Assembly: GCA_019359235.1 (NCBI GenBank)
Contig: JAHHHT010000012.1
Span: forward strand, 131,648 to 195,647
DNA: 64,000 bases
Source of the DNA: Oscillatoria princeps RMCB-10
GTDB taxonomy: Bacteria; Cyanobacteriota; Cyanobacteriia; Cyanobacteriales; Oscillatoriaceae
Direction: 5' to 3'
Shown in pieces: positions 9,056-64,000 of this stretch. A program made the translations under genes and the position numbers. The first letter of the stretch is position 1. Each line of letters starts with the position of its first letter. A model generated the notes under the pieces. The model ran no database searches and was not told the DNA's origin. It worked only from the letters and a program-made list of their open reading frames with translations.

Positions 9056-9141
9056 CCCCTATACCCTAACCCCTAACCCCTAACCCCCAATCCCCAATCC
9101 CCAATCCCCAATCCCCAATCCCCAATCCCCAATCCCCAAAC
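9056..9141. repeat. STRR-like tandem heptamer array (CCCTAAC x3 then CCCCAAT x8)
   Basis: Direct tandem heptamers read in sequence. CCCCAAT matches the cyanobacterial STRR1 consensus CCCCA(A/G)T. Confidence 0.8.
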
Positions 9142-12900: not shown

Positions 12901-12995
12901 GGGCATCACGCAAAAGGGCATCACGCAAAAGGGCGATTGGGCATGGGTTGAATTATCAACTTTTCTTCTAAACCCTAACCCCTAAACCCTAAACT
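12901..12995. repeat. short tandem repeats: 17-mer GGGCATCACGCAAAAGG x2, then CCCTAA(A/C) heptamers
   Basis: gggcatcacgcaaaagggcatcacgcaaaagggcg at 12901-12935. aaaccctaacccctaaaccctaaac at 12961-12990. Confidence 0.6.
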
Positions 12996-14050: not shown

Positions 14051-14174
14051 AGAAACCAGGTTGGTTTGATAACCCGGGTTTCTGGGGGCTGACTTATTGT
14101 CCCATTCTTTTATACCGGCTCTCATATTAGTGAGGTACTTAGAAACCCGGTTTCTTTAAGAAACCGGGTTTCCC
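14051..14174. repeat. cluster of three GAAACC(C)GGGTTTC palindromic elements
   Basis: agaaaccaggttggtttgataacccgggtttct at 14051-14083. agaaacccggtttctttaagaaaccgggtttccc at 14141-14174. Confidence 0.6.
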
Positions 14175-16358: not shown

Positions 16359-16634
16359 GTTAATATTTGTAAACGAATTCGGCAATCAAAGGCGACGGGC
16401 GTGAAGGCAAAGCTGAAAACAGGGCGCAAATCCGCCCGGATTCTCAACTCATACCAATTTTGGATTTTGGATGCAAGGATTTTGGATTGGACAAGGCGGC
16501 AGTAAAGCCTTTCCAGCCCCAGGGGAAAATACTATCGATCCCAACTTGGGATCAGAACGTCTCACTGGAAAACCCAGAGGGAAAAAACCAGGGTGCACAA
16601 CCGGTTTGTCCGCTTTAGCTCACCGTGGCACAAA

Positions 16635-21843: not shown

Positions 21844-21877
21844 AGAAACCCGGTTTCTTAAAGAAACCGGGTTTCTA
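21844..21877. repeat. tandem pair of GAAACCCGGTTTC palindromic elements
   Basis: agaaacccggtttcttaaagaaaccgggtttct. Confidence 0.6.
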
Positions 21878-23411: not shown

Positions 23412-23789
23412 ATTCTGTCAGAGGAAGTTGGGTGCGTTACCGACTGCGGAACCCACCCTACAAGTCCCCGGGTGGCTCATACAAATTTTTGATTTTGGAG
23501 GCATGGATTTTGGATTGAAAAAGGCGTCAGTAACGCCTTTTGAGCCCCTGGAAAAAAAGTGGGGGTTTGTGGCGTTGATTTCAATGGCTTTATCGCAGGA
23601 GGCGATGGCTAAGATGTGCCGGTGCGTTCTTGACTCGCTCGCTGCAGACATCCAGAAGCCAGCTTAACCCAACATCCGAGAAACGGAATGCGCTTTCCCC
23701 TTGACACTTCAAGGGTGGAGAAGGCAATCTTAAATTTGCGATCTCCGGATGTTTTTCCATCTGTGCTGTATCCTGGAAAGAAAAAATAC

Positions 23790-24250: not shown

Positions 24251-24970
24251 TCAGGCGATCGTCTCGACTTTACCACTATCTAAGTCGTAACGGGCCCCAA
24301 CGATTTTCAGCCTGCCCTCTTTGAGCAACTCAGTCAGGATGGGTTGAGAGGATTTTAATTGCTCCACAACCAGTTTGACATTGGCTTTGACGGCGTTGTC
24401 GAGCGGGTCGCCGGCTTGGCCTTTCGCCTTGGCCAGGGCGGGGTTGATGGCGGCCAGCAAGCTGCCAATGTGCCCGGGGACTGGCTTGCCTTCTAAGGCG
24501 GCTTTCACGGCACCGCATCCTTCATGGCCCAGCACCACAATCAGGGGGACGCCCAAATGCTCGGCGGCATATTCAATGCTGCCGAGTACCACGTCGTCGG
24601 TGATATTCCCAGCCACCCGGATGTCAAATATATCGCCGATTCCCTGGTCAAAAAGAATTTCCGCCGGCACCCGTGAGTCAGCGCAGCCAAGAACGATCGC
24701 AAACGGATGCTGGCCTTGGGCAACTTCTGCCAGACGCACCCGGTTCTGGTCGGGATAGGTTCGTTTTTCCTCAACAAACCGTTTATTGCCATCCATCAAT
24801 TTTTGCAGGGCTAGATCGGGGCTGGTGCCTGCAGGAGAATCCTCGTTTGTGGCGACACGTTGATGCCCAACCAGCTTGACTGCAAGCGCAGCCGCCAGGG
24901 CTCCCCCACCGGCAGCCGCGAGCATTTCCCGCCGGGAAAGCCGTCTCAAATGCTTTCTGTTGTCCATCAT
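24251..24970 (-). CDS. beta-class carbonic anhydrase with twin-arginine (Tat)-like signal (EcaB-like)
   Basis: Zinc-ligand motifs CADSRV and HEGCGAV. N-terminus RRLSRREMLAAAGGGALAAALA. Confidence 0.85.
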   Translation of the reverse strand: MMDNRKHLRRLSRREMLAAAGGGALAAALAVKLVGHQRVATNEDSPAGTSPDLALQKLMDGNKRFVEEKRTYPDQNRVRLAEVAQGQHPFAIVLGCADSRVPAEILFDQGIGDIFDIRVAGNITDDVVLGSIEYAAEHLGVPLIVVLGHEGCGAVKAALEGKPVPGHIGSLLAAINPALAKAKGQAGDPLDNAVKANVKLVVEQLKSSQPILTELLKEGRLKIVGARYDLDSGKVETIA

Positions 24971-26861: not shown

Positions 26862-27572
26862 TCAAGGAATCAGCTCTACTTGGCCGGTGGCTAAGTCGTA
26901 GCGAGCGCCAACAATTTTAACCTGGCCCATTTGCACCAAATCAGCCAGGATGGGTTGGGAAGATTTCAATTGCTCAACCACCATTGTAATGTTGGCTTTG
27001 ACTGCGTTGTCAAGGGCATCACCGGCTTTGCCTCTTGCCTTGTCCACGGCTGGTTTGATGGCATCGACAAAACTGAAAATGTGGCCCGGAACTGGGTTGC
27101 CTTCTAGCGCCGCCTTCACCGCACCGCATCGTTCGTGCCCCAGCACCATAATTAAGGACACACCCAATACCGCTGTGGCATATTCGATGCTGCCGAGAAT
27201 AGCGTCGTCCAGGATATTGCCCGCCACGCGAATCACAAACAAGTCCCCCAGTCCTTGGTCAAAGAGAATTTCCGGCGGAACTCGCGAATCCGCACAGCCC
27301 AGCAAGATCGCAAAAGGATGCTGACCTTTTGCAACCTCTGCGAGACGCATGGGCGTCTGGTCGGGATAGGTGCGTTTTTGCTCAACATACCGTTGATTCC
27401 CTTCTATCAGTTTGTGCAAAGCATCGTCACCCGTGAGTGGGGCGGCTTCTTGTGGTGTTGCTATTTCAGGAAGAACGAGTTCGTCACTCAGTTGATCTAC
27501 GAACCCACTGGCACCAGCCAGAGCCTTGAAATCGGCTTTAGATTTAACCTTTAACTGCTTTCGGTTTGCCAT
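26862..27572 (-). CDS. beta-class carbonic anhydrase, no signal peptide (paralogue of 24251..24970)
   Basis: CADSRV and HERCGAV motifs. About 70% identical to the Tat-signal copy over the catalytic domain. N-terminus MANRKQLKVKSKADFKALAGASGF is not signal-like. Confidence 0.85.
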   Translation of the reverse strand: MANRKQLKVKSKADFKALAGASGFVDQLSDELVLPEIATPQEAAPLTGDDALHKLIEGNQRYVEQKRTYPDQTPMRLAEVAKGQHPFAILLGCADSRVPPEILFDQGLGDLFVIRVAGNILDDAILGSIEYATAVLGVSLIMVLGHERCGAVKAALEGNPVPGHIFSFVDAIKPAVDKARGKAGDALDNAVKANITMVVEQLKSSQPILADLVQMGQVKIVGARYDLATGQVELIP

Positions 27573-31658: not shown

Positions 31659-34600
31659 TCAGACTTTCTTAACTGTTTGCCTAATGGGAATCTCAATCCA
31701 AAACTCCGCACCTTGTCCGGGCTCAGACACACACTTGAGCCGTCCGCCGTGCTTGTCGGCGACAATTTGATAGCTGATGGACAGTCCCAAGCCGGTGCCC
31801 TCACCCACAGGTTTAGTGGTGAAAAAGGGGTCAAATATCCGCAATCTTGCTGATTCGGGAATGCCTGGCCCATTGTCCTCGATCGCGATTGCCACCCAAT
31901 TATTCTCCACAGCCCGTTGGGTGCGAATGGTGATGGTACTGGGATTCTTTTTCAGCTCTTCTCGAGAGCGCTCCCTGTCGCGCTCCTGAAGAGCGTCAAT
32001 GGAATTGTTCAGGAGATTCATAAACACCTGATTCAGCTGGCCGGCATAGCACTCAACTTCTGGCAAATCGCCGTATTCCCTGACGATTTGAATGCCCGGC
32101 TGGTCTGGCTTAGCCTTGAGCCGGTTCTGCAAAATCAGCAGACTGCTCTCAATTCCCTCATGAATATTCACCGGCTTCATTTCCGCTTCGTCAAGCCGGG
32201 AGAAATTGCGCAGCGTCAGGACAATCTGGCGGATGCGCTCAGCCCCAACTTTCATCGAAGACAGCGTTTTGGGTAAATCCTCAACCAGGAAATCCAGTTC
32301 AATCTCTTCAATCAAGTCTTGAATTTCCGGGTCTGGGTTGGGATAGCGCTCCTGGTAGAGGTTGATTAAAGCCAGCAAGTCCTGAGCGTAGTCATCGGCG
32401 TGAGTGATGTTGCCATAGATAAAATTAACGGGGTTATTAATCTCGTGGGCGACACCGGCAACCAGCTGTCCGAGACTGGACATTTTCTCAGTCTGAATCA
32501 GTTGAGTTTGGGTTTGCTGGATCTGTTGCAGCGCTTGTTCCAGTTGCTTGGCTTGAGCCGCAGCCGCTTCAGCAGCAGACTGGCTCTGCTGGTAGAGCTC
32601 TGCTTGCTGAATGGCGATTGCAGCTTGGTTCGCTAATTGTTGCAATAGTTCAATTTCTGCCGGCTGCCAAACCCTGGGAGCAGAGCACTCGTGAGCGATC
32701 AGCAGCCCCCAGAGGAGATAATCGATGCGAACCGGCACGACAAGATTGGCTTGAATTCCCAGGTTCAGCAAAAACTTTTTGTGACAGGGATGCAAATCTG
32801 ACTCAGCGATGCTGTCAACCGCTTTCACTCGCCCGTAGCTGTAAAGGCGGGCGTACTCTGTCGGGAAGCACTCATCCGCATACACGTCTCCCTGAAGTAA
32901 TTTCCAGCGCCCATTTACCGCTTCCACCACCACTTCGCCTTGCCAGTCTCGCGTGAACTGGTAAATCACCACCCGATCAGTGTTAAGTAGGGCGAGGACT
33001 TCTCGCACGATAGTTTGCAGGATAGTCTTTAAATCTAAAGTCCTGCGGATTTGGTCTGTAATTTGTGTGAGAACCCGGTCAGATTCCACAGACTGCATCA
33101 ATTGCGCCTGAGCCTGCCGCAGTTCCTGAAGCGTTTTCTCTAATTCTAGAGCTTGCGCTGTGGCCGTAGCCGCCAGTTGCTCTTTAAGCTGCAATGCTTG
33201 CCAGAGTTCGGCTTCCGCTCGCACGCGCCCGGTGATGTCGCGCAGGATAGCAACATATTCTTGCTGCTTTCGATTCCTTCTGTGCGAGAGCGTTATTTCA
33301 ATGATGCGATCCGGGCTAAATGTCCGCTCGCTCCGCTTTGGCCATTGCTCAATATCCACCGGCAACTCAGAAAAGAAATGGTTCAGGCGACTCCCAATCA
33401 GTTGAGGGATGTCTGTGCGGAAAAGTGTTTCAGCCGCCCGGTTGGCTTGCTGGATCGCACCGCTTGCATCGAGCACGAGGACGGTATCCGGAACGGTGTC
33501 GAGGGCCGCAATAAACAGACTTTCAGCCCGCTCTCGCGCTTCGGCAATCGCCGCAACTTGGGGCAAGCTCGTCCAGCAGGCGATGGCGATGGCAACAAAG
33601 GCAATCGTTAGGAGAACAACGACCAGCAGATCGCTGCGGGGGGGTAGAGAGGATCTGTCTAATAGAGCTCTGAGAACCCAGCCTGCGGTGGCAGCGCTGC
33701 AGACCAATACAATCAGAACGACCACCTGCAGCACCAAAAAATCTTTGAACTTGCCGGTGGTTGGCGCAACTGTTCTCCGCACCCACCATGCTGGGTGGAA
33801 GGGTGGGAAGGAAATGCGGCGAATTGCGGCATCAAAAGCCAAAAAAGCGAGAGGGAAAAGCAGCCCTGCAGCTAAGTCTTGCCAGCTCCAGCCCAAGCCT
33901 ACCATGACTAGAAGTGTGGCATCGACTGCGAACAAGCCAAGGGACAGCCACCCCCACCGCACTTCTTGTGAGCGCCGGCGCAGCCAAAGTCCCAGATGAA
34001 ATGCCATCAGAGCTGCCATGTAGCCGGCACCGCTGATGGTGGCGAACCGGGTCACATCTCCCGAAACCAGAGCGAGCAGATTGATGCAAAGTCCGAGTGC
34101 GAGCGCCGGTTGCAGTGCGCCCTGTGGGGAGACAATCTGGAATAGGGGTGAAACGTATCCGTCTAGGGAGAGTTGGTACAAAATGCGCGGAGCGTTGGCA
34201 ACCGAAGTGGCGGCAATCAGCAGGCAGCTTGAGGCTAGCAGGAGGGTGACGGGCAGTGTGGCTGAGGTGCCCCAGAACGGTGCCGCAGCGGCTACTAGGT
34301 GGAAGTAGGGGTTGTCGCCCAGTCCGGGGGAGGTGGCTAGCCGCGCCAGCACCCAGGAGCTACCGAGAAACACCGGCGGAATTAGCCAGGCTACTGAGGA
34401 AAGAATTCGCAATGTTTCGCCCGGTTGCCTGCTGTCGGCGACAAAAGAAGAAGCCGTCTCGCAGGCGCAGGTGGTGTAAATCGCGAAGAAAAACCACTTC
34501 AGCCACTCACGAAAGGTTAAGGGCGGTAAACTGGTGGGGAAAAATCCGGGGCTGTCCGGAGAGAAGGCTAGCCAGCCCAAGCCTTGAATGCAAAACACCA

Positions 34601-35129
34601 GCAGGAATCCAACTGCCGGTAACATGAAAAAGGCGTGCAGGATGCCTAAGGTGCGGGTGCCGCTAAACGCTACAATATAAGCGATTGAGGCGAAGCCAAT
34701 TTTTAGAACCGTTTCGGGACAGTAGACGCCCCAGGGCTCCAGGTTGGCTTTGACGATATCTGTGAGGATGAAGGCGGTGGCTGACGGATAGGCTGCCCAG
34801 GCGAGGAAGTAGGCGATCGCTGCGTAGCGCCCCAGACTGGGATGGTCGCTCAGCAATCGGGTGATATAGTTTGGCGTTCCTCCTGACATCTCTGGCCACT
34901 GCTCCCCCAAGCGTTTCACTTGCAGGTTGAGCAGCACGCCGGCGATTACTGCCGGCAGCCACACGAAAATAGCACTTGCTCCCAGCGCCGCGTGGATTGC
35001 CGGTGCGGTGGTTACCCATCCCAGAAGGCCGGTGAGTCCGAATCCCCAGGTTTCCAGGGCGCTCAGGCTGCGGGGGAGGCGGATTGTCCCCGGCTGACTG
35101 CCCACACCCATTACAGGCTGACTAAGCAT
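31659..35129 (-). CDS. sensor histidine kinase: APC-permease-like 12-TM domain + PAS + GAF + HisKA + HATPase
   Basis: N-terminal membrane domain with TWGFGLTG and [14 protein letters not shown] (APC-like E...P..GG..Y). PAS, GAF, H-box [19 protein letters not shown]-boxes [11 protein letters not shown]. Confidence 0.8.
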
Positions 35130-35378
35130 TTTAACTTAATATGGATTAAAAGCTTGATTAGTAGCTACTTTATCTTTTTCTGCTGCAAGATATTTATAAT
35201 TTTCTAACAAAGTTGAGCGTGCCGCAGACAAAGGGCAGCGTTTTCTCCCCCGCTGCCGGCTGCGCAAATCACTGACGCGCCTGTAATGCAAGTGACAGCG
35301 CTGCGCCCCAATTTGGAGAGCGCACCTGTCCGACTCCCGCAGGCGAGTAACCCAGACCTGGATCTGCCCAACAGCCAA

Positions 35379-36743
35379 TTAACTCGCCTTCAGCGCTGCG
35401 CGATCGCTCTGCACGATGGGAATATCAATCACAAACTCTACCCCCTGTCCGGGTTCCGAGCAACACCTCAACTGCCCGCCGTGCTTTTGCACAACAATAT
35501 CATAGCTGATGAACAGTCCCAAGCCGGTGCCTTCACCCACCGGCTTAGTGGTGAAATCAGGAGGGGTAAACAGGTGTCCCATGACATCCATATCCAACCC
35601 CGGCCCATTATCTTTGATACTGATTCTCACCCAATCCAGGTTCAGAACTTGGGTGCGAACAGTAATAACACTGGGCTGGTTTTTAATCTCGTCTGGGGAG
35701 CGTTTATTATTGTGCGGGTTCAGGGCGTCAATCGCATGGCTGAGGATATTCATAAATACCTGATTCAAAGCTCCGGCATAGCATTCGACTGGCGGCAAAT
35801 CACCGTATTCTTTGACAATTTGAATAGCGGGGCGGTCTGGTTTTGCCTTGAGACGGTTTTGCAAAATCACTAGGGTGCTGTCGATGCCCTCATGAATGCT
35901 GACCTGCTTCATTTCGGCTTCGTCAACCCGCGAGAAGGTGCGCAACGTGATCACAATCTGGCGGATGCGCTCAGCTCCCACTTTCATAGAGGACAGCATT
36001 TTGGGGAGATCCTCTATGATAAAATCAAGGTCAGTGTCCTCAATTAAAGCTTGGATTTTAGGGTCAGGGTTGGGATAGCACTGCTGGTACAGGTCGATTA
36101 AATCCAGGAGCTCCTGAGTGTAGTCACCCACATAGGTGAGGTTGCCGTAGATAAAGTTAACCGGGTTGTTAATTTCGTGGGCGACACCGGCAACCAGCTG
36201 CCCTAAGCTGGACATTTTCTCGGCCTGAATCAGCTGAGCTTGGGTGCGCTGCAAATCTTGCAAAACTCGTTGCAGCTGAATCGCTTTTTCTCGCTCTCGC
36301 GCTTCCGATTGCCGCAACTCCTCCTCTTTTTCTTGCCGCAGGCGCAGGTTTTCTTTCAGCTGTCGCACGCACTGCAGGGTTTTGTTGATAGTAATTTCTA
36401 AATCCTGAAAATCGATGGGCTTAGTCAGGAAGTCAAAAGCCCCGCAGTTCATCGCCTTTCTGATATTTGCCATGTCGCTATAGGCGGAGACTACCACTGT
36501 TTTGATCAGCGGATCTATCTCATTCAGTTTAGCCAGCAAAGTCAAACCATCCATAACCGGCATATTCAGGTCGGTCAGCACCATGTCCAGGTCGGGGTTA
36601 TCTCGCACCTTTTCCAGCGCTTCTGCGCCATTCCGCGCAAAAACCAGCTCCAATTCGCCGGTGCGAATCTTTTTTCTATATTTTTGGGAAATCAGAACTT
36701 CTAAATCCGGCTCGTCATCCACAAAGAGTATTTTAGCCGCCAC
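35379..36743 (-). CDS. hybrid response-regulator/histidine kinase (N-terminal REC + HisKA + HATPase)
   Basis: REC domain [13 protein letters not shown]...[10 protein letters not shown]-box [22 protein letters not shown]. Kinase core about 75% identical to that of 31659..35129. Confidence 0.85.
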
Positions 36744-36884
36744 AGCCCGCCTCCTGTTTTCTATTTTATTAAAAAGTTAGCCGATCGGCGGGCCATTTAA
36801 ACCCGTAAAACTACCGAAGTTTTATGAATAATTCCGAACTGAACGGGACGAGCGAGGCCCGAAAAAGTCGGCGTATATTGGGGG

Positions 36885-37253
36885 CTACAAACTGAATATT
36901 TTTTGTTTCAGGCCCAAAAAGTTAACCGGCTTGGTAATATAGTCATCAGCCCCCAAAGCCATTGCTGTTTGGTAGTTTTGAGGGTCTTCGTAAGCGGTAA
37001 TCATAAAGATTTTTAAACTGGCGAACTCTTTTTTAATGATTTTGAGAAGTTCTAGCCCATTCATTCCCGGCATGTTAATGTCGGAGAGAATCAGCACAGC
37101 GGACGCTTCTCCCCGCTCGTGCAGGTAGTCTAGCGCCGCCTCCGCCGATAAGAAGAAAATAAATTCTACTTGACCGGCTTTGATTTCCTTTCTAAATCTT
37201 TGCTTGAACAGGAGTTGCATATCTTCCTCGTCGTCAACCACTATGACTTTCAT
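36885..37253 (-). CDS. single-domain CheY-like response regulator
   Basis: 122 aa. MKVIVVDDEED...DINMPGMNGLELL...ITKP. Confidence 0.85.
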   Translation of the reverse strand: MKVIVVDDEEDMQLLFKQRFRKEIKAGQVEFIFFLSAEAALDYLHERGEASAVLILSDINMPGMNGLELLKIIKKEFASLKIFMITAYEDPQNYQTAMALGADDYITKPVNFLGLKQKIFSL

Positions 37254-37355
37254 TTATTTCTCCCTCATATCGAGTTGAAATTGACAGGATTTTTACCGGA
37301 CAGCGAAAACTCCTGTCCGGAGAAAAAATCCACAATCCAAAATCCAAAATTCGGA

Positions 37356-40283
37356 TCACTCACGGGCTTGCTTTTTTGGTAAGATGATAATAAACTCTGC
37401 ATAACTGCCAGCTTCCGTTTCCACATTGAGTTCTCCTCTGTGCTGCTGCACGACAATATCGTGACTGATAGACAGACCCAAACCCGTCCCTTCTCCGGCT
37501 GGCTTTGTAGTAAAAAAGGGAGTGAAAAGTTTATCGCGCACCTCTGGCGTCATACCGGAGCCATTATCGCGAATGCGGATTTCAACGCGATCGCCCAGAT
37601 TTTTAGTCCGCACGCTCAGGAGCGGGGAAAATCCACCGCCCATTTCTTCTTTCCTTTTATGGGCTGCATAGCAAGCGTTGTTGATAATGTTCAGAAAAAC
37701 TCGGCCCATGTCTTGCGGGACGACTTCTACAGAGCCAATAGACTCGTCACAGCCGGTTTCTATGGTAATATTAAAGGAAGCCTCCTTGGCCCGCATCCCG
37801 TGATAGGCGAGATTGACATACTCCGCCAATAAACTGTTGATATCCGTCGCCTCCCACTGACCGCTTTTTCCGCGAGAGTGCAGCAGCATATTGCTGACGA
37901 TCCTGTCCGCTCTTTGACCGTGATGGTTGATTTTTTGCAGATTTTGTTTCAGGTCGTTTAAAATGTCGGCGATCAACTCACTTGTTTCGGTATCTAGCCG
38001 GTCGGCTTGATTTTCAATTTCTTCAAACAGTTCTTGGGCTAATTCAGCGGAAAGCTCGGAGAAATTGTTAACAAAGTTTAAGGGGTTCCTGATTTCGTGG
38101 GCGATGCCAGCTGTCAAACTTCCCAGAGAAGCCAGCTTTTCTTGCACGATAATCTGGTTTTGCATGGCTCGCAGATTCTCTTCGACCCGCCGGCGCTCTG
38201 TTATCTCCACCTGCAACTGCTCGACAGTCTGCCTGAGTTCAGATGTGCGCTCCTCAACTTTGATTTCTAGCTGCTCGTTAGCTTTTTGCAGCGCCTCCTG
38301 GGCTCGCACGCGCTCGGTAATGTCCCGCAGAATCACAACATATTCTTGCAGATCCCGATTGGTTTCCGAAGCGTTTTGGGAGAATCGGTCTGAGATGGCA
38401 ACTTCCAGGACAAGCGGATTTGACCCGTGCGGGTTGAGGGTTTGCTCGCACCGGCCCGGCCACTCATCGGGTTGATTTGCCAGTCCGGGCAGCAGTTGGT
38501 TCAGGTGACGCCCGGCCAGCTGGCCGGCGCTCACCCCGAAAAGGCGCTCAGCTGCAGGGTTAACCTGACGAATCATGCCATTTTCATCGAGTACGGCAAT
38601 CGCATCCAAGGCGATCTTAAATAGCTGCTCAGCCGCCTCTCGCGCTTCGTCCATCGAGACAACCTGAGGCAAGCTCGTCCAGCAGGCGATCGCCACCCCG
38701 ACAAATGCCACACCATGAATCAGCACCAGCAATAAATTATAGTTAACGCTGGGGACCGCATTGAATTTGAGGCCCAAAACCCAGCCGGCAGTAACGGCGC
38801 TGCAGACCAGCAAGATCAGAACTGTCACCTGAAGGGCCACAAAATCTTCTATCGGTTTCTTGGGCCTTTGCCGGTAGCCCTGAATCCACCAAGCTGCATG
38901 AAAGGGCGCAAAGGGAAGGCGGCGCATCGCCGCATCCGCCGCCAAAATAGCGAGGGGAAACAGGAACCCTGTGAGAAAGTTTTTCCAGCCCCAAGCAAAG
39001 CCCCCAACGAACAGGACAGCCACCTCCACCAAAAAGAAGCCCAAGGACAGCCAAGGCCACCGCACCTCTGGCCTGCCCCGGCGCAGCCACAGTCCCAAAT
39101 GGAGGGCCATGAAAGACACCAGCCAGCAAGTATTGGTTATTGCCACGATTTGCGAGACATTTCCCCAAATCAGACAGATCAGATTCAGGCACAAGGTAAA
39201 CACCAGGGCCGGTCCGAGTACGCCCCGTCGCGACACAACGGCGAACACGGATGACAGGTGTCCGTCAAGGCTGAGTTGGTACAAAATGCGGGGGCAATTG
39301 GAAACTGCGGTGGCGCAACTGAGAAGGAAACTGGCAGAGAGCAGGAATGTGACAGTTGAGGAAGCTGACTTGCCCCAGAACGGTTTAGAGGCTGCTAGCA
39401 GATTTAAGAACGTGTCCTCCCCCAGTCCAGGCTCGGTAGCTAAACGCATCAGCACCCAAGATCCGCCGAGAAACACCGGCGGAATCAGCCAAGCGGCAAC
39501 AGTCAGAAAGCGCAGGGTTTCAGCAGGGCGTTTGCTGTCGCCGACAAACGAGGAAGCGGTTTCGCCAGCGTAGGTAGCGTAGGTAACAAAGAAAAACCAC
39601 TTGGCCCACTCCACAAAGGTGAGAGGCGATGAACTGCTGGGAAAAAAGCCCGGGCTAGATGGGGAGAAAGCTAACCAGCCCAAACCTTGCAGGCAAAACA
39701 GCAGCAGGAGTCCGAACGCCGGGATGACGAAACATAAATGCAGGATGCTCAAAGCGCGGGTGCCGCTAAACGCCACAATAAAGACGACTGCCACAAAGCC
39801 AATTTTCATCAGCGTATCGGGACAGGCGACACCCAAAGGCTCCAGGTTCCTCTGAATCAGCTTGGTCAGGATGATGGCGGCCACCGGCACATTCGATATC
39901 CAGCTAATGTAATATCCCAGAGCCGCATAGCGGGCAAGCCCTGGAGAGCTCTTCAGCAACCGCGCGGCATAGTTGGGCGTTCCCCCGGCCATTTCGGGCC
40001 AATTTTCGCCCAGGCGTTTCACTTGCAGGTTTAGCAAGATGCCGACGATCGCCCCAGGCAACCAGACGAATACGGCATTAGGCCCAAGAGCGGCGTGGAT
40101 CGCTGGAGCGATACTGGGCCATATAACGTGACCGGTTAGACCAAAGCCCCAGGTTTCCAGGGGAGTGAGGGTTCGCTGCAGGCGCATCAGCGACCTCTCC
40201 TTGAGATTCCTGCCCGGGAAAGGTTGAGACTGTTGTGAGTGGGAGCCGGCTGCCGGCTCGTGTCGGGTTTCTGGCACCATCAC
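37356..40283 (-). CDS. sensor histidine kinase: APC-permease-like membrane domain + PAS + HisKA + HATPase (paralogue of 31659..35129)
   Basis: [10 protein letters not shown]...GENWPEMAGGTPNY in the N-terminal membrane domain. H-box [24 protein letters not shown]. The start is probably MRLQRTL. Confidence 0.8.
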   Translation of the reverse strand: MMVPETRHEPAAGSHSQQSQPFPGRNLKERSLMRLQRTLTPLETWGFGLTGHVIWPSIAPAIHAALGPNAVFVWLPGAIVGILLNLQVKRLGENWPEMAGGTPNYAARLLKSSPGLARYAALGYYISWISNVPVAAIILTKLIQRNLEPLGVACPDTLMKIGFVAVVFIVAFSGTRALSILHLCFVIPAFGLLLLFCLQGLGWLAFSPSSPGFFPSSSSPLTFVEWAKWFFFVTYATYAGETASSFVGDSKRPAETLRFLTVAAWLIPPVFLGGSWVLMRLATEPGLGEDTFLNLLAASKPFWGKSASSTVTFLLSASFLLSCATAVSNCPRILYQLSLDGHLSSVFAVVSRRGVLGPALVFTLCLNLICLIWGNVSQIVAITNTCWLVSFMALHLGLWLRRGRPEVRWPWLSLGFFLVEVAVLFVGGFAWGWKNFLTGFLFPLAILAADAAMRRLPFAPFHAAWWIQGYRQRPKKPIEDFVALQVTVLILLVCSAVTAGWVLGLKFNAVPSVNYNLLLVLIHGVAFVGVAIACWTSLPQVVSMDEAREAAEQLFKIALDAIAVLDENGMIRQVNPAAERLFGVSAGQLAGRHLNQLLPGLANQPDEWPGRCEQTLNPHGSNPLVLEVAISDRFSQNASETNRDLQEYVVILRDITERVRAQEALQKANEQLEIKVEERTSELRQTVEQLQVEITERRRVEENLRAMQNQIIVQEKLASLGSLTAGIAHEIRNPLNFVNNFSELSAELAQELFEEIENQADRLDTETSELIADILNDLKQNLQKINHHGQRADRIVSNMLLHSRGKSGQWEATDINSLLAEYVNLAYHGMRAKEASFNITIETGCDESIGSVEVVPQDMGRVFLNIINNACYAAHKRKEEMGGGFSPLLSVRTKNLGDRVEIRIRDNGSGMTPEVRDKLFTPFFTTKPAGEGTGLGLSISHDIVVQQHRGELNVETEAGSYAEFIIILPKKQARE

Positions 40284-40542
40284 TTTTATATCCCGTGTTC
40301 AGTGGTTCGCAGCTCGCACCCAGGCGGGGAAACAGACGGCTTCAACCTCTCAAGGGTTAAGATGCCGGTTGCTGTTAGCATCTGCTCTCTGGCACAGGCG
40401 GGACGCTTGTGCGGTTCGGTGGCAGCGTCAGGATTCATTTTTGAGGTTTAGAATTCCCTCTCGCTGTTTCCTGCGTAACAGTTCAATCCCTATTTTGGCT
40501 GCCGGCACAACTTTAAAAAAAAAATTAACATTTTTTTAGCAT

Positions 40543-40780
40543 GTCTTCTTCTCGTTTGAACAACAAACTTAATAATGGGCATTAGCCCAACTACAAACCG
40601 AGCCCCGAGAGCTGGCCATATCCCCGCTCTTTGGATTGCAAAAGGGCCGGCCTGCGGGCTTGTCTTCTTCTCGTTTGAGCAACAAACTTAATAATGGGCT
40701 AAAGCCCAACTACAAACAGCTTGTCTTCTTCTCGTTTGAGCAACAAACTTAATAATGGGCTAAAGCCCAACTACAAACGG
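40543..40780. repeat. three copies of a 58-bp direct repeat upstream of lgt (copies 2 and 3 abutting)
   Basis: tgtcttcttctcgtttga(a/g)caacaaacttaataatgggc(at/ta)agcccaactacaaac at 40543-40600, 40662-40720 and 40722-40780. Confidence 0.8.
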
Positions 40781-41791: not shown

Positions 41792-41869
41792 AGGCATTTT
41801 AGATTTTAGAGTTTAGATTTTAGATTTTAGATTAAATTTACTTTTTAGGCTCTGAAATCTAAAATCTGA

Positions 41870-43012: not shown

Positions 43013-43155
43013 CGGTGGCCGGTGAGGGTGGCCACGGGGGGCCGGTGAGCCACTCTTTGCCGGTGAGGGCGGCCACTCTTTGCCGGTGAGGGCGGCCACT
43101 CTTTGCCGGTGAGGGCGGCCACTCTTTGCCGGTGAGGGCGGCCACGGGGGGCCGC
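43013..43155. repeat. tandem array of about six 23-bp units (CCGGTGAGGGCGGCCACTCTTTG)
   Basis: Four perfect units at 43060-43150 plus variants. ORFs 42867..43145 and 42874..43122 only translate this array. Confidence 0.8.
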
Positions 43156-44240: not shown

Positions 44241-44308
44241 TCCCACAGGGGCGGGGCAGGCAGCAGATTCGGGCCGAATCTTGCACAACGCCTGCGATCC
44301 CCCCCTTA

Positions 44309-44372
44309 CCCCCCCCTTAAAAAGGGGGGGAATAAGAAAATAGCCCCCCTTTTTAAGGGGGGTTGGGGGGAT
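44309..44372 (+). terminator. two G/C-homopolymer hairpins downstream of the BI-1 gene
   Basis: CCCCCCCCTTAAAAAGGGGGGG at 44309-44330. CCCCCCTTTTTTAAGGGGGG-TTGGGGGGAT at 44345-44372, the same family as the element inside copA. Confidence 0.55.
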
Positions 44373-46853: not shown

Positions 46854-46889
46854 AGAAACCGGGTTTCTTTGGGAAAAACCCGGTTTCTA
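46854..46889. repeat. tandem pair of GAAACCGGGTTTC palindromic elements after the fructokinase gene
   Basis: agaaaccgggtttctttgggaaaaacccggtttct. Confidence 0.6.
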
Positions 46890-50724: not shown

Positions 50725-50842
50725 AGGTTTTTGATTCGCTCTGCAGTGTAAGACACATCCAGGTTCGGGCAAACCACCTTAAGCAGAATAGCAGTTCCTA
50801 CCTAGCCACTGGCTTACTGGGGCTACCGGCTCAATCCGGGAC

Positions 50843-51055
50843 AGAAACCAGATTTCTTTGAGAAACTTGGTTTCTAGTGGCCACTCAGGCGCGGAGTTGG
50901 CCACAGGGCGTCTCCAGGCGGAGGCGGGAGAGAAATCAGATTTCTTTGAGAAACTTGGTTTCTAGTGGCCACCCAGGCGCGGAGTTTCCCACAGGGCGTC
51001 TCCAGGCGGAGGCGGGACAGAAACCAGGTTTCTTTGAGAAACCCGGTTTCTTGTT
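50843..51055. repeat. 2.4 tandem copies of an 88-bp unit built from GAAACCnGnTTTC palindromes
   Basis: Units at 50843-50930, 50931-51018 and partial 51019-51055. Confidence 0.8.
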
Positions 51056-55319: not shown

Positions 55320-55793
55320 AAGACTGTTCTGATAGAGGGGGTTGCGGTCGGGGCTGCCGGTGGGTTGCGAAGGCTCGCTGGCGTGTGCTGCTACACCGGC
55401 GGCTCGCCATGCGGTACGCGCACCCTCCTGCTGAACTGCTGGATAAGCTTTATTACTTATCAGTTTGGCAGGTGTTTGTGAAATCAGCATGAAAAAATAC
55501 CTACTCGTTGCGGGAAGTTGGGTTATTGCGTAATTAAGCTTTTTGCATTACGCATAAGCGGGGCGGGCGTAAAAAAAATAGGGTGCGACGAGCTCCCCTA
55601 TTTCAGCAATCAGCAAGGAGTGGGGTGCGTTAAGCTGTTACGCTTTTAATATGCTTATGGGAAAAAGGAGACAGAGCCTCCAGAGGCGCGTTCCCAGGCT
55701 CCGCCTGGGAACGAGGGATAGAGATGAATAGCACAAATTAAATGCGCAATAGCTTAGTAAGGCACCCTAAAGTGTCTTGGAGTTTGAGCCTGC

Positions 55794-58798: not shown

Positions 58799-61117
58799 TC
58801 ATGGCTGGAACCGGCGCAAGCGCAAGGCGTTGGTGACGACTGAGACGGAGCTAAATGCCATTGCGGCACCGGCAATAATCGGATTGAGCAGCCAGCCAAA
58901 CAGGGGAAATAAAATCCCGGCGGCTACTGGAATGCCGGCAGCGTTGTAACCGAAGGCGAACAAGAGATTTTGGCGAATATTCCGCAGGGTGGCGCGGCTG
59001 AGGCGGATGGCGGTGACGATGGCTTGCAAGTCTCCAGAAATTAAGGTGATGTCGCTGGCGGCGATTGCCACATCTGTGCCGGTGCCGATGGCTATGCCAA
59101 CATCTGCCTGAGCTAAAGCGGGGGCGTCGTTGATGCCATCTCCCACCATCGCCACAATTCGATTTTGGATGTGGTATTTGGGATTTTGGATTGAAGGGTT
59201 TACCCCGGTTTGGAGAGATTGAATAACGGCTGCTTTTTGGTCGGGGCGGACTTCGGCAAAGACTCGCTCAATCCCGACTTGCTGCGCGATTGCTTCCGCT
59301 GTGCGCCGGTTGTCTCCGGTGAGCATTACGACTTCTAAGCCCATTCTTTGCAGGGCTCTCACAGCTTCAGCGGAAGAAGGTTTGAGGGTGTCTGCAATTG
59401 CGATAATTCCCTCTAATTCTCCGTCAACGGCTAGGAAGACAACTGTTTTGCCTGAATCTTCCCAGGCTACTTTGTGCCCGTGCAGTTGCAGGGTGTCAAT
59501 CCCCAATTCGTCCATCCAGCGCTGCGTTCCGATTTGCACGAGTCTGTCTGAAACAATTCCCCGGACGCCACTGCCGGCAATTGCCTGAAATTTTTCGCAT
59601 TCTGGTAGCGCTACCTCTTTGCCCCCCTTATTAAGGGGGGTTGGGGGGATCTGTTGTTCCTCGGTGTACTTGACGACTGCTTCTGCTAGAGGGTGTTCTG
59701 AGTGGCGCTCAACGGCTGCTGCTAGCCGCAATAGTTTTAGCTCATTCTGATGGGCGGTTCCCCCAAGGGTTACAAAGTCTGTAACGCCGGGTTTGCCTTG
59801 GGTGAGTGTGCCGGTTTTATCGAGGACAACGGTCTGAATTCTATGGGCGAGTTCCAGACTGCCGGCTCCTTTTATAAGAATGCCGTTTTCTGCGCCTTTA
59901 CCGATGCCAACTGTGACGGAGGTGGGGGTGGCTAATCCGAGGGCGCAGGGACAAGCGATAATCAGAACGCTGACGGTGGCAATGGTGGCTAGGCTGAGGT
60001 TGCCGGTGAAGTTAAACCAAAGGATAAAGGTGGCGGTGGCGATCGCGATTACTGCCGGCACGAACCATGCGGTCACCCGATCGGCGAGTCGCTGAATCGG
60101 GGCTTTGGAACCTTGAGCTTGCTGCACCAATTTGACAATCTGAGCTAGGGCTGTGTCTTTCCCCACTCGCATCGCCCGGAACCGGAAGCTGCCGGTTTTG
60201 TTGATAGTGGCTCCAATCACTTCATCCCCCGGCTGCTTGCTGGCGGGAATACTTTCGCCGGTAATCATTGATTCATCTACTGTTGAGGTGCCGGCAATCA
60301 CTTCGCCATCTACGGGGATTTTTTCGCCGGGGCGCACCTGCACGATATCTCCGACGGCGACTTCTGCTATGGGGATATCCAGCTCTCTCCCATTTCTAAT
60401 AATGCGAGCGGTTTTCGGCTGCAAGCCCATCAATTTGCGGATGGCTTCTGAGGTTTGACCTCGCGCCCGGTTTTCCAAAAAGCGACCGAGCATTGTCAGG
60501 GTTATAATTACGGCTGAGGCTTCATAGTAAACCTCTGGCATGAGCCCTTGGGACAGGAAAAAACCGGGGCTGACGGTCGCCCAAAGGGAGTAGAAGTAAG
60601 CCGCACTGGTTCCTAAGGTGATTAGGGTGTTCATGTCTGCGGTGCGGTGCCGAAATGCTTTCCAGGCTCCCCGGTAAAAGGGCAAGCCGGCCCAAAATTG
60701 AACCGGGGATGCGAGTAATAGCTGCACCCAGGAATTGTGCAGCCAATTCAGAATTGGGTGCGAACTCAATCCTGTCATGGCGGGGATAGCGCCGGCAACC
60801 AGAAGCAGGCTCAGCGCGCTGCTGACTGCGAGCTTGCGCAAAAGCTGTTGCTCTTCTGCTTTCCGACCGGCTTTTTCGGCATCGTCTTCTTCCTCCCCCG
60901 CTTCCTGAATGGGATGGGCGGAATATCCCGCATCACTCACTGCGCGGGCTATGTCGCTAGAATTTGTTTGCTTGGCATTGTAGTTGACGGTGGCTTGCTC
61001 TGCGCCGAAGTTGACGCTGCACTCAACCACGCCGGGAACGGATTGGATGGCTCGCTCGATTTTGCCGGCGCAAGACGCGCAACCCATGCCTTTCACGCGC
61101 AGATGGACTGTTTCCAT
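58799..61117 (-). CDS. copA: copper-translocating P-type ATPase (CopA/PacS/CtaA-type)
   Basis: N-terminal [33 protein letters not shown]. Contains two in-frame repeat-element insertions. Confidence 0.9.
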
Positions 61118-61328
61118 AATGGACTCCTGCTCGCTGTACCTCTACGCTTACGCTAAACCCTCCAGTCAACTGGAGAGTCAAGGGGGAGTTTGTAAAGTTT
61201 TGTTGCGCCGGCTGGCGGGCTTGGATCTAACGTCCTAAGCAATTTGGCATTGATGAGGATGATTTGGATTAATTTTGAGTGAGAAGTAGGGTGCGTTACG
61301 CAGTAACGCACCCACTCCTTTATCGCTT

Positions 61329-61817: not shown

Positions 61818-61917
61818 GTCATTTCCTCCTATTCTCATATTTTCACCGGCACTGGAGGCGGAGCCTCCTGAGCTGCGCTCCCAGGCGGAGCCTGGGAACG
61901 AGATATACGAGATATAT

Positions 61918-64000
61918 TCACCCTTCTCCCACCCCCAGCTTGGGAAACAAAATCTTGCCAAACTGAGCGTACAAAGCTGGCAGCACCAGCAGCGTTAAAG
62001 CGGTCGAAGTAAACAGTCCGCCGAGCACCACCACCGCTAGCGGTTGCAGGATTTCCTTGCCGGCACCGCCCCCAACCACCAGAGGGCCCAACCCCAAAGC
62101 AGAAGTAAAAGCTGTCATCAGGATAGCATTGAGCCGCTCCATTGAACCTTCAACGATTACTTCCCGCAAAGGCATCCCGCTGGCAAACTTAGCATTGTAA
62201 TTGTCAACCAGTAACAGCCCGTTGCGAGTGGCAACCCCGAATAGGGTGATGAACCCAACTAGGGAGGCGACGGAAAGAATGCCGCCGGCAAGTGCTACGG
62301 ATATCACTCCCCCCACCAGTGACAGGGGCAGATTAATCACAATCATTGCAGTTGAGGGGATGGACTTGACAGACAAGTACATCAACACTGCAATCATAGC
62401 AAAGGATATAATACTGAATACCAGCATGTTCTGGGTGGCTCGCTGTTCCGACTCGAACTGACCGCCGTACTGGATAAAGTAGCCGGCGGGCAATTGCACC
62501 TGCTGCTTGACTTTGGCGCGAATTTCATCGACGACGGATCGCAAGTCTCGCCCGGTGGCATTGGAGGAGACAACTATCAGGCGAGAGACATTCTCGCGGT
62601 TGATGGTATTGGGACCAGTTCCGTAGTCGATTTTGGCAACTTGAGCGAGGGGAATTTTTTGCCCAGCTGGGGTATCGACTAACAGGTTGCGGAGGGTGTC
62701 GGGGTTGCGGCGGGCGTCTTCTTTTAACCACACAAGGAGGTCAAAGGTTTGCTGCTGTTCCAAGACTTGAGAGACAACTCGCCCGTTGAGCGCGGTTTGA
62801 ATAATATCTGATAGGGACTGCACGGTTAAGCCATAACGAGCGGCTTGCTGCCGGTCGAAGTGGATTTGAATCTGTTTCACCGGCACTTGGGGTTCGAGTT
62901 GCAAGTCTACCACACCTTCAACCGTTTTCGCAATCTCCTCGACTTGCTTGCCGAGGGCGCGGAGTTGCTCCAAGTCCGGGCCAAATATTTTGACAGCAAT
63001 CGCGCTCCTCACGCCTGAGAGTACCTCATCCATGCGGTGGGAGATGAAGCCGCCAATATTAGGCGCGACTCCCGGCAATTTGGCAAATTCCTCCCGCAGT
63101 TTTTCAATACTCCCCTGCCGGTCTTTTATGCCTGACTCACTCAATTCTACATCCAAGTGCGCTAAGTTGACACCGGCAGCATCGGCATCTCCGGGTGCCC
63201 TTCCCGACCGCAACTGGATAAAATCAAAGCGGGGGTCATCTTTGAGGGCTTCTTCTAGGGCGTAGCCGGCGCGATTTGTAGCCTCCAGGGAGACGCCGGG
63301 ATAGAGCGTCAGGGTGTTGACGAGGGAGCGCTCTTGGAACTCCGGTAAAAACACCCGCCCCAAGGAGGGAACGATCGTAATTGCCGCGACGAGACTGGCA
63401 CCGGCTAGCAGCAAAATTAGCTTAGAATTGCGCATGGCAAAGATTAAGAGGGGGCGGTAAAGCCCTTTAAAAAATCTCGCCACCCAGGTTTCTTCTTCTG
63501 GCAAGGAACCGCTTGGCAGTAAGATGGCGCAGAGAGCCGGTGTGACGGTTAGGGCGGTAATGCCGGAAGCCACAACGACGACTAAATAGGCGACGCCCAT
63601 CGGTGTGAAGATGCGACCTTCGACGCCGGCTAAGGCAAAAACTGGGGAAAAAACAACCCCGGTAATTAAGCTAGCGCCAAACAGGGAGTCGCGCACTTCC
63701 TGGCAGCCTTCAAAGACGACCTCTAGCGGAGGCTTTGGGCTGCCGGCGAGTTTGTTTTCTCGCAGGCAGCGGTAGACATTTTCTGCGTCTACAATAGCAT
63801 CATCGACCGCATTGCCAATGGCAACAGCCAGCCCTCCCAAGGTCATCGTGTTGAGTCCCTGTCCCAGCCAATTTAGCCCCAGCACGCTTAACAGCAAAGA
63901 GAGGGGGAGTGCGGTGAGGCTGACAGCCAGCGCCCGCCAGTTCATCAAAAAGGGGATGAGGATTATAGCAACGATCGCGCCGCCTTCAACGAGCGCTTCC
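61918..64000 (-). CDS. CusA/CzcA-family heavy-metal efflux RND transporter, N-terminal part outside the window
   Basis: VDDAIVDAENVYR and the TM pattern of HME-RND. The frame stays open upstream of track start 63948 to the window end. Confidence 0.85.
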   Translation of the reverse strand, partial: EALVEGGAIVAIILIPFLMNWRALAVSLTALPLSLLLSVLGLNWLGQGLNTMTLGGLAVAIGNAVDDAIVDAENVYRCLRENKLAGSPKPPLEVVFEGCQEVRDSLFGASLITGVVFSPVFALAGVEGRIFTPMGVAYLVVVVASGITALTVTPALCAILLPSGSLPEEETWVARFFKGLYRPLLIFAMRNSKLILLLAGASLVAAITIVPSLGRVFLPEFQERSLVNTLTLYPGVSLEATNRAGYALEEALKDDPRFDFIQLRSGRAPGDADAAGVNLAHLDVELSESGIKDRQGSIEKLREEFAKLPGVAPNIGGFISHRMDEVLSGVRSAIAVKIFGPDLEQLRALGKQVEEIAKTVEGVVDLQLEPQVPVKQIQIHFDRQQAARYGLTVQSLSDIIQTALNGRVVSQVLEQQQTFDLLVWLKEDARRNPDTLRNLLVDTPAGQKIPLAQVAKIDYGTGPNTINRENVSRLIVVSSNATGRDLRSVVDEIRAKVKQQVQLPAGYFIQYGGQFESEQRATQNMLVFSIISFAMIAVLMYLSVKSIPSTAMIVINLPLSLVGGVISVALAGGILSVASLVGFITLFGVATRNGLLLVDNYNAKFASGMPLREVIVEGSMERLNAILMTAFTSALGLGPLVVGGGAGKEILQPLAVVVLGGLFTSTALTLLVLPALYAQFGKILFPKLGVGEG

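Follow-up and report, generated by a model that had tools for sequence, protein, structure and literature searches.

How does a gene for an essential metal pump come to carry, inside its reading frame, DNA of a kind that otherwise lies dispersed between genes? The question is raised by copA of Oscillatoria princeps RMCB-10, located in a stretch of 64,000 nucleotides (nt) of GenBank assembly GCA_019359235.1 (contig JAHHHT010000012.1, positions 131,648 to 195,647 of the forward strand), which is referred to below as the window. The gene contains two segments, designated here elements A and B. Most probably, copA is a working gene of a copper-exporting P1B-ATPase in which two surface loops were lengthened by genomic repeat DNA and not by ordinary protein evolution. 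The original prediction, made from the letters of the window, held that two different dispersed repeats are inserted in-frame in copA and tolerated as extra loops. The present analysis bears this out: both segments belong to repeat families at the nucleotide level, both form gaps against solved CopA structures and are modelled as low-confidence coil, and the gene is under purifying selection. The predicted peptide coordinates also proved exact. The features of the gene that are needed for the argument are as follows.

58799–61117, minus strand: coding sequence of the copA/pacS-type P1B Cu(I)-ATPase, an open reading frame (ORF) of 772 amino acids (aa)
61070–61081, minus strand: CxxC motif
60254–60262, minus strand: TGE motif
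59945–59953, minus strand: CPC motif
59807–59821, minus strand: DKTGT motif
59687–59701, minus strand: SEHPL motif
59621–59650, minus strand: element B, a single unit, coding strand ATCCCCCCAACCCCCCTTAATAAGGGGGGC; encodes I490–G499 (10 residues)
59622–59640, no strand assigned: hairpin core within element B; stem of 8 bp, CCCCCCTT/AAGGGGGG, and loop of 3 nt
59161–59192, minus strand: element A, a decayed heptanucleotide array, coding strand ATC CAA AAT CCC AAA TAC CAC ATC CAA AAT C
59120–59143, minus strand: GDGINDAP motif

The assignment of the gene is straightforward. All the hallmarks of a P1B-type Cu(I) ATPase (CopA/PacS) are found in it, namely the N-terminal HMA domain with CxxC, TGE, the transmembrane CPC, DKTGT, SEHPL and GDGxNDxP, and the Pfam domains recorded on its orthologues are HMA, E1-E2_ATPase and Hydrolase. 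The best matches in PDB run end-to-end with the window protein: CopA of Archaeoglobus (3j09, E 1e-188) and CopA of Legionella (3rfu, E 3.5e-183). The nearest database proteins, at 93–94% identity, are three sequences from metagenomes or metagenome-assembled genomes (MAGs) and the protein of Kamptonema formosum. Against close relatives its dN/dS is 0.17–0.22, so that purifying selection acts on the gene while it contains both inserts.

Both elements appear as clean gaps in the alignments to 3j09 and 3rfu. An AlphaFold model was built from a shallow alignment of 34 sequences; its N and P domains have a pLDDT (predicted local distance difference test) of 70–90, and the only low-confidence stretches within them coincide with the inserts. 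Residues 490–501 are modelled as coil with pLDDT <50 between helix 476–488, which follows SEHPL, and strand 507–513 (the GxG strand). Residues 643–652 are likewise modelled as coil with pLDDT <50, between helix 625–637 and strand 654–659 (the GDGxND strand). Both inserts are thus helix-to-strand connections, one in the N (nucleotide-binding) domain and one in the P domain. Loops of the A and P domains had been named beforehand as the likely places; the P domain is retained by this mapping, but the A domain is replaced by the N domain. In Rossmann/HAD folds the catalytic residues sit at the C-terminal ends of strands. Since the P-domain insert is at the N-terminal end of its strand, it should point away from the phosphorylation site. 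The loop peptides given here are those predicted from the DNA.

The DNA of element B is organized on the coding strand as a C-rich tag followed by the 8-bp stem with its 3-nt loop, and the 30-mer folds with a minimum free energy of -14.7 kcal/mol. Other members of the family suggest that the full unit is probably 59617–59652 (AGATC...GGGGGGCAAAG). The hairpin core is present at three places in the window (44311, 44344 and 59622) against 0.02 expected. The copy downstream of the BI-1 gene (Bax1-I/BI-1 family), to which attention had been drawn at the outset, is indeed a close one: 59621–59650 and 44343–44372 are identical at 29 of 30 bases. It has an inverted partner, and the two units form a doublet that folds as one long hairpin (-56.7 kcal/mol). 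The doublet is separated by 57 nt from the BI-1 gene, downstream of it, and the genes on its two sides are convergent.

44297–44372, no strand assigned: intergenic inverted doublet of element B, resembling a REPIN (a doublet of repetitive extragenic palindromic, REP, sequences) or a MITE (miniature inverted-repeat transposable element); units 44297–44330 and 44343–44372 in opposite orientation

The family was surveyed by scanning one genome per bacterial species with the pattern CCCCCNAACCCCCCTTNNNAAGGGGGG, which has 23 specified bases, so that essentially zero chance matches are expected. The pattern was found in at least 120 genomic stretches, with 133 copies among the matches listed, and the family counts below refer to these. 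The named matches are nearly all cyanobacteria of many orders, including Nostoc, Calothrix, Microcoleus, Tychonema, Laspinema, Moorena, Okeania, Symploca, Coleofasciculus, Crocosphaera, Halothece, Chamaesiphon and Leptolyngbyaceae; a few fall in other MAGs, e.g. of Patescibacteria and Sericytochromatia. The family consensus is (G)ATC-C5(C/T)AA-C6TT-NNN-AAG6 with an 8-bp stem and a variable triloop. The unpaired end (G)ATC-CCCCC(C/T)AA is seen in all 133 copies, a part of this tag being fixed by the search pattern; the stem is constant in them, but its sequence was fixed by the pattern too and so carries no information on covariation. A conserved (G)AT(C) stands directly 5' of the tag, and two subfamilies can be distinguished among the listed copies, one with ...CCCCCTAA... 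followed by a second hairpin and the other with ...CCCCCCAA....

Frequently two units are combined as an inverted doublet, with the layout GATCCCCCCAACCCCCCTTnnnAAGGGGGG - spacer - CCCCCCTTnnnAAGGGGGGTTrGGGGGGATC. Such doublets are 74–90 nt long with terminal inverted repeats of ~30 nt and are present in at least 9 of the 120 listed loci (the 17 forward-to-reverse matches counted include overlapping duplicates). The complete unit thus looks like a REPIN or a very small MITE, of which the copA copy is one half. The whole window gives no Rfam match at gathering thresholds, therefore neither element is a curated RNA family. The flanks of K. formosum copA (22 kb) and of the P0002 gene (14.6 kb; orthologues are numbered P0001 and so on) contain no further copies of element B outside copA, therefore its local density is uneven. 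With regard to surroundings, the Nostoc loci (L011, L016, L022, L023, L052, L053, L070, L077, L094, L099, L118) have a conserved flank of ~25 nt, GCTGTGATTTTAGGCACTT...GATC, 5' of the hairpin unit and a second hairpin 3' of it, and the Microcoleus loci (L014, L100, L111, L122) have CAATACGGTTCACTTAAG 5' of the unit. The hairpin unit is therefore embedded in larger, lineage-specific composite repeats.

The age of the inserts was approached through the 34-sequence alignment, a codon alignment of close relatives and a survey of the 120 nearest homologues. In the first of these the element B peptide is present in the window protein and its three closest relatives and is absent from K. formosum, whose protein is 93% identical; the codon alignment of these two genes shows a net gain of 30 nt at element B. 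Among the 120 nearest homologues the element is counted in only 6 and is absent from ~114; those that have it are P0001–P0003, P0012 and P0006. Its sequence is near-invariant in the four closest filled alleles. In P0012 the unit occupies the identical site and its stem is intact, but its triloop is another one (CTT CAA AAG), and the copy of P0006 is decayed, with a 9-nt deletion. By these comparisons element B in copA is a recent gain. The expectation that both segments are lineage-specific insertions is thus upheld for the hairpin only; element A is widespread in cyanobacterial CopA/PacS.

The DNA around element B has a history of its own. Window and K. formosum genes are ~95% identical in nucleotides over most of copA but 81–83% identical in ~100 nt around the element. 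In the triplet of window, P0001 and K. formosum sequences, a 120-nt block around element B contains 19 sites at which the window agrees with P0001 and two of the opposite kind (maximum chi-square 26.8; matched by 0 of 300 permutations). Given this clustering, copA is a recombination mosaic, in which a separate and older haplotype carries the filled state. The filled alleles fall into three clades (window group, P0006 and P0012) which have derived flanks, G-K-E/K-x-A-LPE, in common, while the empty alleles and all outgroups read (G)V-x-K/F-P-LPE. The shared flanks favour one origin followed by short-patch exchange. At the same site P0010, the closest empty relative of P0012, reads CAA GGT GGA AAG AAA CCG and P0012 itself reads CAG-(27 nt)-GGG GGC AAG AAG GGA GCG; the hairpin's 3' arm thus falls on a GG run that is native to the site, a hint of junctional microhomology. 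No recent donor of the patch can be named among these clades: the window flanks are 71–77% identical to those of P0012 and P0006, no closer than elsewhere.

Element A is of another kind. Tandem Repeats Finder (TRF) reports it with a period of 7, 4.6 copies and 76% matches. It is a head-to-tail array of a 7-nt unit whose other copies are dispersed and mainly intergenic, as in the heptanucleotide repeats known as short tandemly repeated repetitive (STRR) sequences or simple sequence repeats (SSR). The proposal that both segments are MITE/NSE-like insertions hence has to be divided: element A is a tandem array of the STRR/SSR type, and it is element B, as half of a REPIN/MITE-like inverted doublet, to which the description may apply. 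The extra loop at element A comprises T637–R653 (nt 59159–59209) and replaces the four-residue xEGK of the minimal form; within it, the 14-residue peptide of residues 639–652 (nt 59162–59203) stands directly before the 16-residue motif segment. The C-rich strand of (ATCCAAA)n gives the hydrophilic IQNPKSK in every frame. A 7-nt unit read in threes yields the same seven-residue peptide in all frames, therefore such arrays never break the frame internally.

The orthologues make the origin of this peptide visible. P0001 and P0005 have the perfect ATC CAA AAT CCA AAA TCC AAA ATC CAA AAT at the site, i.e. (ATCCAAA) x4.3–4.5 encoding IQNPKSKIQN; point-mutated versions are found in the window, in K. 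formosum (IQNPKYQIQN) and in P0002/P0003 (IPNPKSQIPN). Within the window group the derived peptide varies (Q/P, S/Y, K/H/Q), and the window array retains only two perfect GATTTTGG units. P0006 has lost exactly seven codons, which equals three units (21 nt). In this loop roughly one half of the 120 orthologues show xEGK, the minimal form, matching the archaeal and Legionella proteins, and the rest have inserts of 8–45 residues, the longest (45 aa) in P0099 of Nostoc sp. MG11; K. formosum and many other cyanobacterial CopA/PacS proteins carry the heptamer element there. The original prediction had also named its own disproof, should orthologues have the same peptides without repeat nucleotides; those with the peptides carry the repeat DNA. 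At least two registers of the IQNPKSK array exist, one shared by the window group with a distant clade, which are locally 78–80% identical in nucleotides vs 57–70% elsewhere, and another in Nostoc, where the array runs into native AAA ATT. The P-domain loop was therefore hit or expanded more than once and shuffled again by recombination. Element A is older than element B.

Other copies of the heptamer are present in the window. The 10-mer GATTTTGGAT has eight occurrences against 0.20 expected, a number reached in 0 of 100 shuffles, and two of the eight (59161 and 59182) are those of element A. Among the intergenic copies put forward initially, those at 16456, 23485 and 37326 are genuine, the first two as parts of an 82-nt dispersed repeat; the fourth is a weak remnant only.

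16448–16529, plus strand: 82-nt dispersed repeat, copy 1; interrupted (GATTTTG)n array (16457–16488), then a small hairpin
23476–23557, plus strand: 82-nt dispersed repeat, copy 2; (GATTTTG)n array (23485–23518), 84% identical to copy 1
37325–37350, minus strand: intergenic (AAAATCC)x3.7 array of the heptamer family of element A, found by TRF
61255–61272, plus strand: weak heptamer-family remnant GATGATTTGGATTAA upstream of copA, with no exact 10-mer match

TRF lists 11 period-7 rows in the window, some of them overlapping. Two of the eight exact 10-mers, at 41580 (in the Lgt domain, RFWIEGLR) and 25424 (in the CemA domain), were considered as repeat copies and rejected as ordinary coding sequence inside Pfam domains; the 10-mer alone is therefore not diagnostic and the period-7 arrays are.

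Neither family is confined to copA in its use of reading frames. Fourteen of the 133 listed copies of element B (~10%) lie within long ORFs with open frames, in three frame/strand combinations that read IPPTPLxKGG, PPQPPLxRGE and xPLxKGGWGD. The scanned hosts are real genes by Pfam, with domains on both sides of the insert or spanning it: a condensation and adenylation module of a non-ribosomal peptide synthetase (NRPS), CobN, a NACHT-HEAT protein, an OprB porin (in the same MAG as P0003) and an AcrB-type (RND) pump. An intragenic share of ~10%, far below coding density, would be expected if most intragenic insertions are purged. In one NRPS ORF (L028, Cyanobacteriota MAG099) a hairpin-type unit (PLTKGG) lies in-frame beside an IQNPKS heptamer remnant, giving the peptide ...SDPPLSPLTKGGIQNPKSSRLYKTGD...; these units sit just before the A8 motif of the adenylation domain, and the same ORF has a second hairpin unit, APLFKGGWGD.

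For the heptamer, metagenome contigs were scanned for (ATCCAAA)x4, which gave 127 perfect arrays among the matches listed (L132–L251), a sample conditioned on a length of >=28 nt. Within this sample 89 of 127 arrays are 31–33 nt long and 75 of 127 start at AATCC, and most end in AAAATC or AAAAT. Each has four GG tracts on the opposite strand, and arrays of approximately four units, with four G tracts, are favoured in this sample. The arrays have no common flanks, and the GC content of their contigs ranges from 0.32 to 0.68. In 48 of the 127 the array lies in a frame that is open for >=60 codons on both sides (~27 are open for >=150 codons on both sides); the coding strand gives IQNPKSK in 39 of these and the hydrophobic FWILDFG in 9. 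In-frame hosts recognized by Pfam are UvrB, two UvrD-type helicases, MurD, CheA, an SLT transglycosylase, an NRPS adenylation domain, a vWA protein and a PSCyt2/PSD1 protein, the last having an architecture known mainly from Planctomycetes. Example loci are L247:~3050-3083, L144:884-914, L239 and L134. So stereotyped an array looks like a discrete cross-phylum module rather than a microsatellite grown by slippage.

A course of events may be proposed on this basis. Repeat DNA would have been copied into copA, and the survivors would be additions in multiples of three without stops, hydrophilic or Pro/Gly-rich, in permissive loops. An array of ~32 nt, (ATCCAAA) x4.3–4.5, would have entered the P-domain loop much earlier and would now be decaying by point mutation; a single unit of 30–36 nt, element B, would have entered the N-domain loop recently, on a haplotype now segregating by recombination among close relatives. 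After fixation the segments would drift (A) or pass between lineages by recombination (A and B). The net lengths of the inserts are indeed multiples of three (+30 nt for B, +39 nt for A), with no stop codon in the frame used. Selection tolerates both because the frame is kept, there are no stops, the peptides are hydrophilic or Pro/Gly-rich, and they lie in helix-strand loops; the loops are assumed to be neutral passengers without a function of their own. Candidate routes of entry would be transposition through single-stranded DNA (ssDNA) hairpins, as in REP elements moved by REP-associated tyrosine transposases (RAYT), or copying and template switching guided by microhomology. At site B the junction overlaps the native GG run, at site A it overlaps a CAAAAT that is likewise native, and such overlaps are equally compatible with microhomology-guided template switching.

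Several points weigh against the insertion of repeat DNA as described. No transposase, target-site duplication or donor copy was identified, a result obtained with no search aimed at Y1_Tnp, and insertion as an event is therefore inferred from presence and absence only. A site-specific mechanism might conceivably have acted three times at site B. The AlphaFold model is modest overall, with a mean pLDDT of 63. Finally, element A could have grown in situ from native GGCAAAAT. In its full form this last alternative states that slippage amplified a native CAAAAT/GCAAAAT seed (GGC AAA ATT) into the heptamer array. It accounts well for the loss of exactly three units in P0006, as slippage would give, for the Nostoc register, in which the array runs seamlessly into native AAA ATT GT, and for the orthologues of minimal form, which read GGC AAA ATT/GTT at this site. 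However, the heptamer recurs with stereotyped length (31–33 nt) and phase (AATCC...AAAATC) between genes in the window and in-frame in unrelated genes, over 32–68% GC and with no common flanks, and the array lengths in the >=28-nt sample are not broadly spread. Slippage in place is hence an unlikely source of element A.

It is less probable still that the repeats are retained for a role of the nucleic acid itself, where the 8-bp GC hairpin of the mRNA, or the four GG tracts of the template strand as a possible two-tetrad G-quadruplex, would influence how the copper operon is transcribed or translated or how stable its mRNA is. The hairpin is stable at -14.7 kcal/mol, the arrays have exactly four GG tracts each, a four-unit preference is reported for related G-rich heptamers (PMC4692102), and the 39:9 strand bias of the listed intragenic arrays also fits avoidance of G-rich mRNA. 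Such a role agrees poorly with presence and absence varying among close relatives that have the same operon, with the decay of the window array to two perfect units, and with the lack of any Rfam family match in the window. That both segments are ordinary, functionally selected CopA loops (e.g. for protein interaction or regulation) whose resemblance to repeats is coincidental seems very improbable. The P-domain loop is longer than minimal in about half of the 120 orthologues and element B hardly varies in the four closest filled alleles, as selected loops might; but coincidence would have to explain the 29/30 identity to a non-coding copy, the perfect heptamers in relatives and the same DNA read in other frames or on the other strand in unrelated proteins, and there is free variation of the A-derived peptide inside the window group, while solved CopA structures lack both segments. 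An artefact of assembly or sequencing, with chimeric or wrongly assembled reads of repeats placed in copA, can finally be given practically no credence: repeats commonly cause misassembly, but the filled gene with both in-frame inserts is found in three independent assemblies (P0001–P0003, from JGI, ENA and NCBI), element A is also present in an isolate genome of K. formosum, and the frames are preserved.

The proposed lengthening of copA by repeat DNA has several known parallels. One is that of the Rickettsia palindromic elements (RPE; Ogata et al. 2000, through the review PMC10969869), palindromic repeats found in-frame in unrelated housekeeping genes. Element B resembles them as an in-frame palindromic repeat in conserved, unrelated genes (copA and the NRPS, CobN, NACHT, OprB and AcrB hosts), forming a loop compatible with fold and function and having non-coding copies as well. 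It differs in that RPEs are ~100–150 bp long and encode a conserved peptide of 30–50 aa (PMC10969869), while element B has 30–36 nt and 10 aa in three frame/strand combinations; the sequences are unrelated, the phylum is different, and the copA unit is half of a doublet. With REP/REPIN sequences (RAYT-mobilised; PMC3116915; PMC3733652) the family has in common a palindromic unit of 20–40 nt (here a 27-nt core with an 8-bp stem, in at least 120 stretches), a conserved unpaired 5' tag, frequent inverted doublets folding as one long hairpin, and many copies, which are mainly extragenic and in numerous cases stand between convergent genes; copA itself has a singlet. The GTAG/CGTC tag of REPs is absent, the tag of element B being (G)ATC-C5(C/T)AA, and ~10% of its listed copies are intragenic and in-frame. 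Cyanobacterial MITEs (Nezha and others; PMC10969869) are similar to the doublet in its 74–90 nt, its ~30-nt terminal inverted repeats and its lack of coding capacity, but no consistent target-site duplication at the element B flanks and no parent insertion sequence were found, and the copA copy, a single terminal unit, is far below MITE size (70–300 bp).

Closer to home are the repeats of cyanobacteria themselves. Small dispersed repeats (SDR) are, like element B, hairpin repeats of cyanobacteria, and one NRPS host reported here has a hairpin unit and a heptamer array side by side. Reportedly, SDR1–8 of Nostocaceae, described by Elhai et al. in 2008, are hairpin-forming dispersed repeats of 21–27 nt that occur in heptamer arrays and mini-transposons and were proposed to be mobile. 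In PMC5861425, which like PMC4390886 cites that work, the SDRs are given as confined to Nostocaceae. Element B by contrast occurs in Oscillatoriales, Chroococcales and others, and it is set beside the SDRs by their description only, not by sequence.

The heptamers invite a similar comparison. STRR heptanucleotide repeats of cyanobacteria are said to go back to Mazel et al. in 1990. A four-unit preference was reported for GGGNATC-type heptamers of Xanthomonas and Nostoc, which are scarcer than expected in coding sequences (Rehm et al. 2015, PMC4692102). Element A shares with these the genome-dispersed tandem heptamers and the approximately four units or four G tracts, and the window also has a (CCCCAAT)x8 array of the Nostoc GGGGATT type. 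The differences are in the unit, GGATTTT with GG tracts rather than GGG/GGGG, in the position of element A in-frame inside an essential domain rather than outside coding regions, and in the occurrence of identical arrays in-frame well outside cyanobacteria. Text searches of the searchable literature found no papers containing the element or peptide strings. What is known, then, is the in-frame colonisation by palindromic repeats in Rickettsia, the small hairpin repeats with heptamers and the heptamer arrays; new in copA are units far shorter than RPEs, two unrelated families in one enzyme, and clear filled as well as empty alleles to which haplotypes are linked. Also new would be the spread of the hairpin family, which is phylum-wide rather than within one cyanobacterial family.

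Some further heptamer arrays of the window may be recorded here. At 9048–9139, (CCCCTAA)x3–4 is followed by a perfect (CCCCAAT)x7.9, whose complement GGGGATT is the Nostoc G-quadruplex heptamer type of Rehm et al. 2015; (CTAAACC)x3.9 at 12968–12994 is identical to the plant-type telomere unit CCCTAAA; and (ATTTTAG)x5.4 at 41796–41865 lies directly after lgt, with an inverted partner of 75% complementarity at 41834–41865. Other repeats of the window include a second palindromic family, AGAAACCCGGTTTCTTTAAGAAACCGGGTTTC, with seven copies (14051–14172, 21844–21877, 46854–46885 and 50843–51050), three of them inside an 88-nt tandem repeat (x2.4) at 50837–51051; a perfect 23-nt tandem repeat (x4.2) at 43049–43145, upstream of the BI-1 gene; and a 61-nt repeat at 40539–40779 in three copies, 90–100% identical, which extends over the mechanical start of the ORF of lgt, where the Pfam match to Lgt begins only at residue 74. 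Segments 31684–36191 and 35416–39504, as well as 24251–24550 and 26862–27161, are 68–80% identical, pointing to tandemly duplicated large genes (ORFs 31659–35129, 35379–36743 and 37356–40283) and a duplicated gene of ~240 aa.

The neighbourhood of the gene is one of copper resistance: downstream are a cupredoxin-like gene and a DUF305 gene, upstream is an RND pump gene, and relatives show this arrangement too. The RND gene (61918–63948) was considered as truncated or interrupted, which was rejected, its frame being open up to the window end. A 25-nt hairpin CGTTCCCAGGCTCCGCCTGGGAACG occurs twice, at 55689–55713 and 61876–61900 (96% complementary); the second copy lies between the RND gene and a small gene upstream of copA and can be read as the spurious ORF segments PGSAWER / SQAEPGNE. 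In two related loci genes of the TnpB type (OrfB_IS605 / Cas12f-like) are situated directly upstream of copA: L004:70-1113 (the P0006 locus) and L006:4440-5630 (the P0005 locus). Elements of the IS200/IS605 family move via ssDNA hairpins, which makes them a possible source of mobility for the hairpin repeats.

As a wider reading, which is possible but rather doubtful, the two short DNA modules may serve bacterial proteins in general as donors of loops. The first is the C6/G6 hairpin unit with its GATC tag, 27–36 nt long and conserved throughout the cyanobacterial phylum; the second is a ~32-nt array AATCC(AAAATCC)3AAAATC, whose length and phase are the same on contigs from 32% to 68% GC. They would be deposited as discrete units by template or microhomology guidance, not by slippage, would repeatedly land in the same loops of orthologues and would then spread by short-patch recombination between lineages. 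If this is true, the heptamer module would count as a mini-insertion that crosses phyla and is shorter than every mobile element recognised so far. Irrespective of this, the stereotyped 32-nt heptamer module found across phyla is the most unexpected by-product of the analysis and merits separate study.

The copA gene offers a base-by-base view of non-coding repeat DNA turning into protein sequence, and is a clear case of a known but seldom documented route by which loops are acquired. One essential enzyme has a recent gain of 10 residues and an older gain of 13, and filled and empty alleles persist among close relatives. For annotators and modellers this is a warning that Pro/Gly-rich segments of the PPxPLxKGG and PPQPPLxRGE types, and those of the IQNPKSK type, in proteins of cyanobacteria and other bacteria are repeat-derived and are not conserved motifs. 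The case also makes testable how such short units are copied and how much they contribute to the evolution of loop length.

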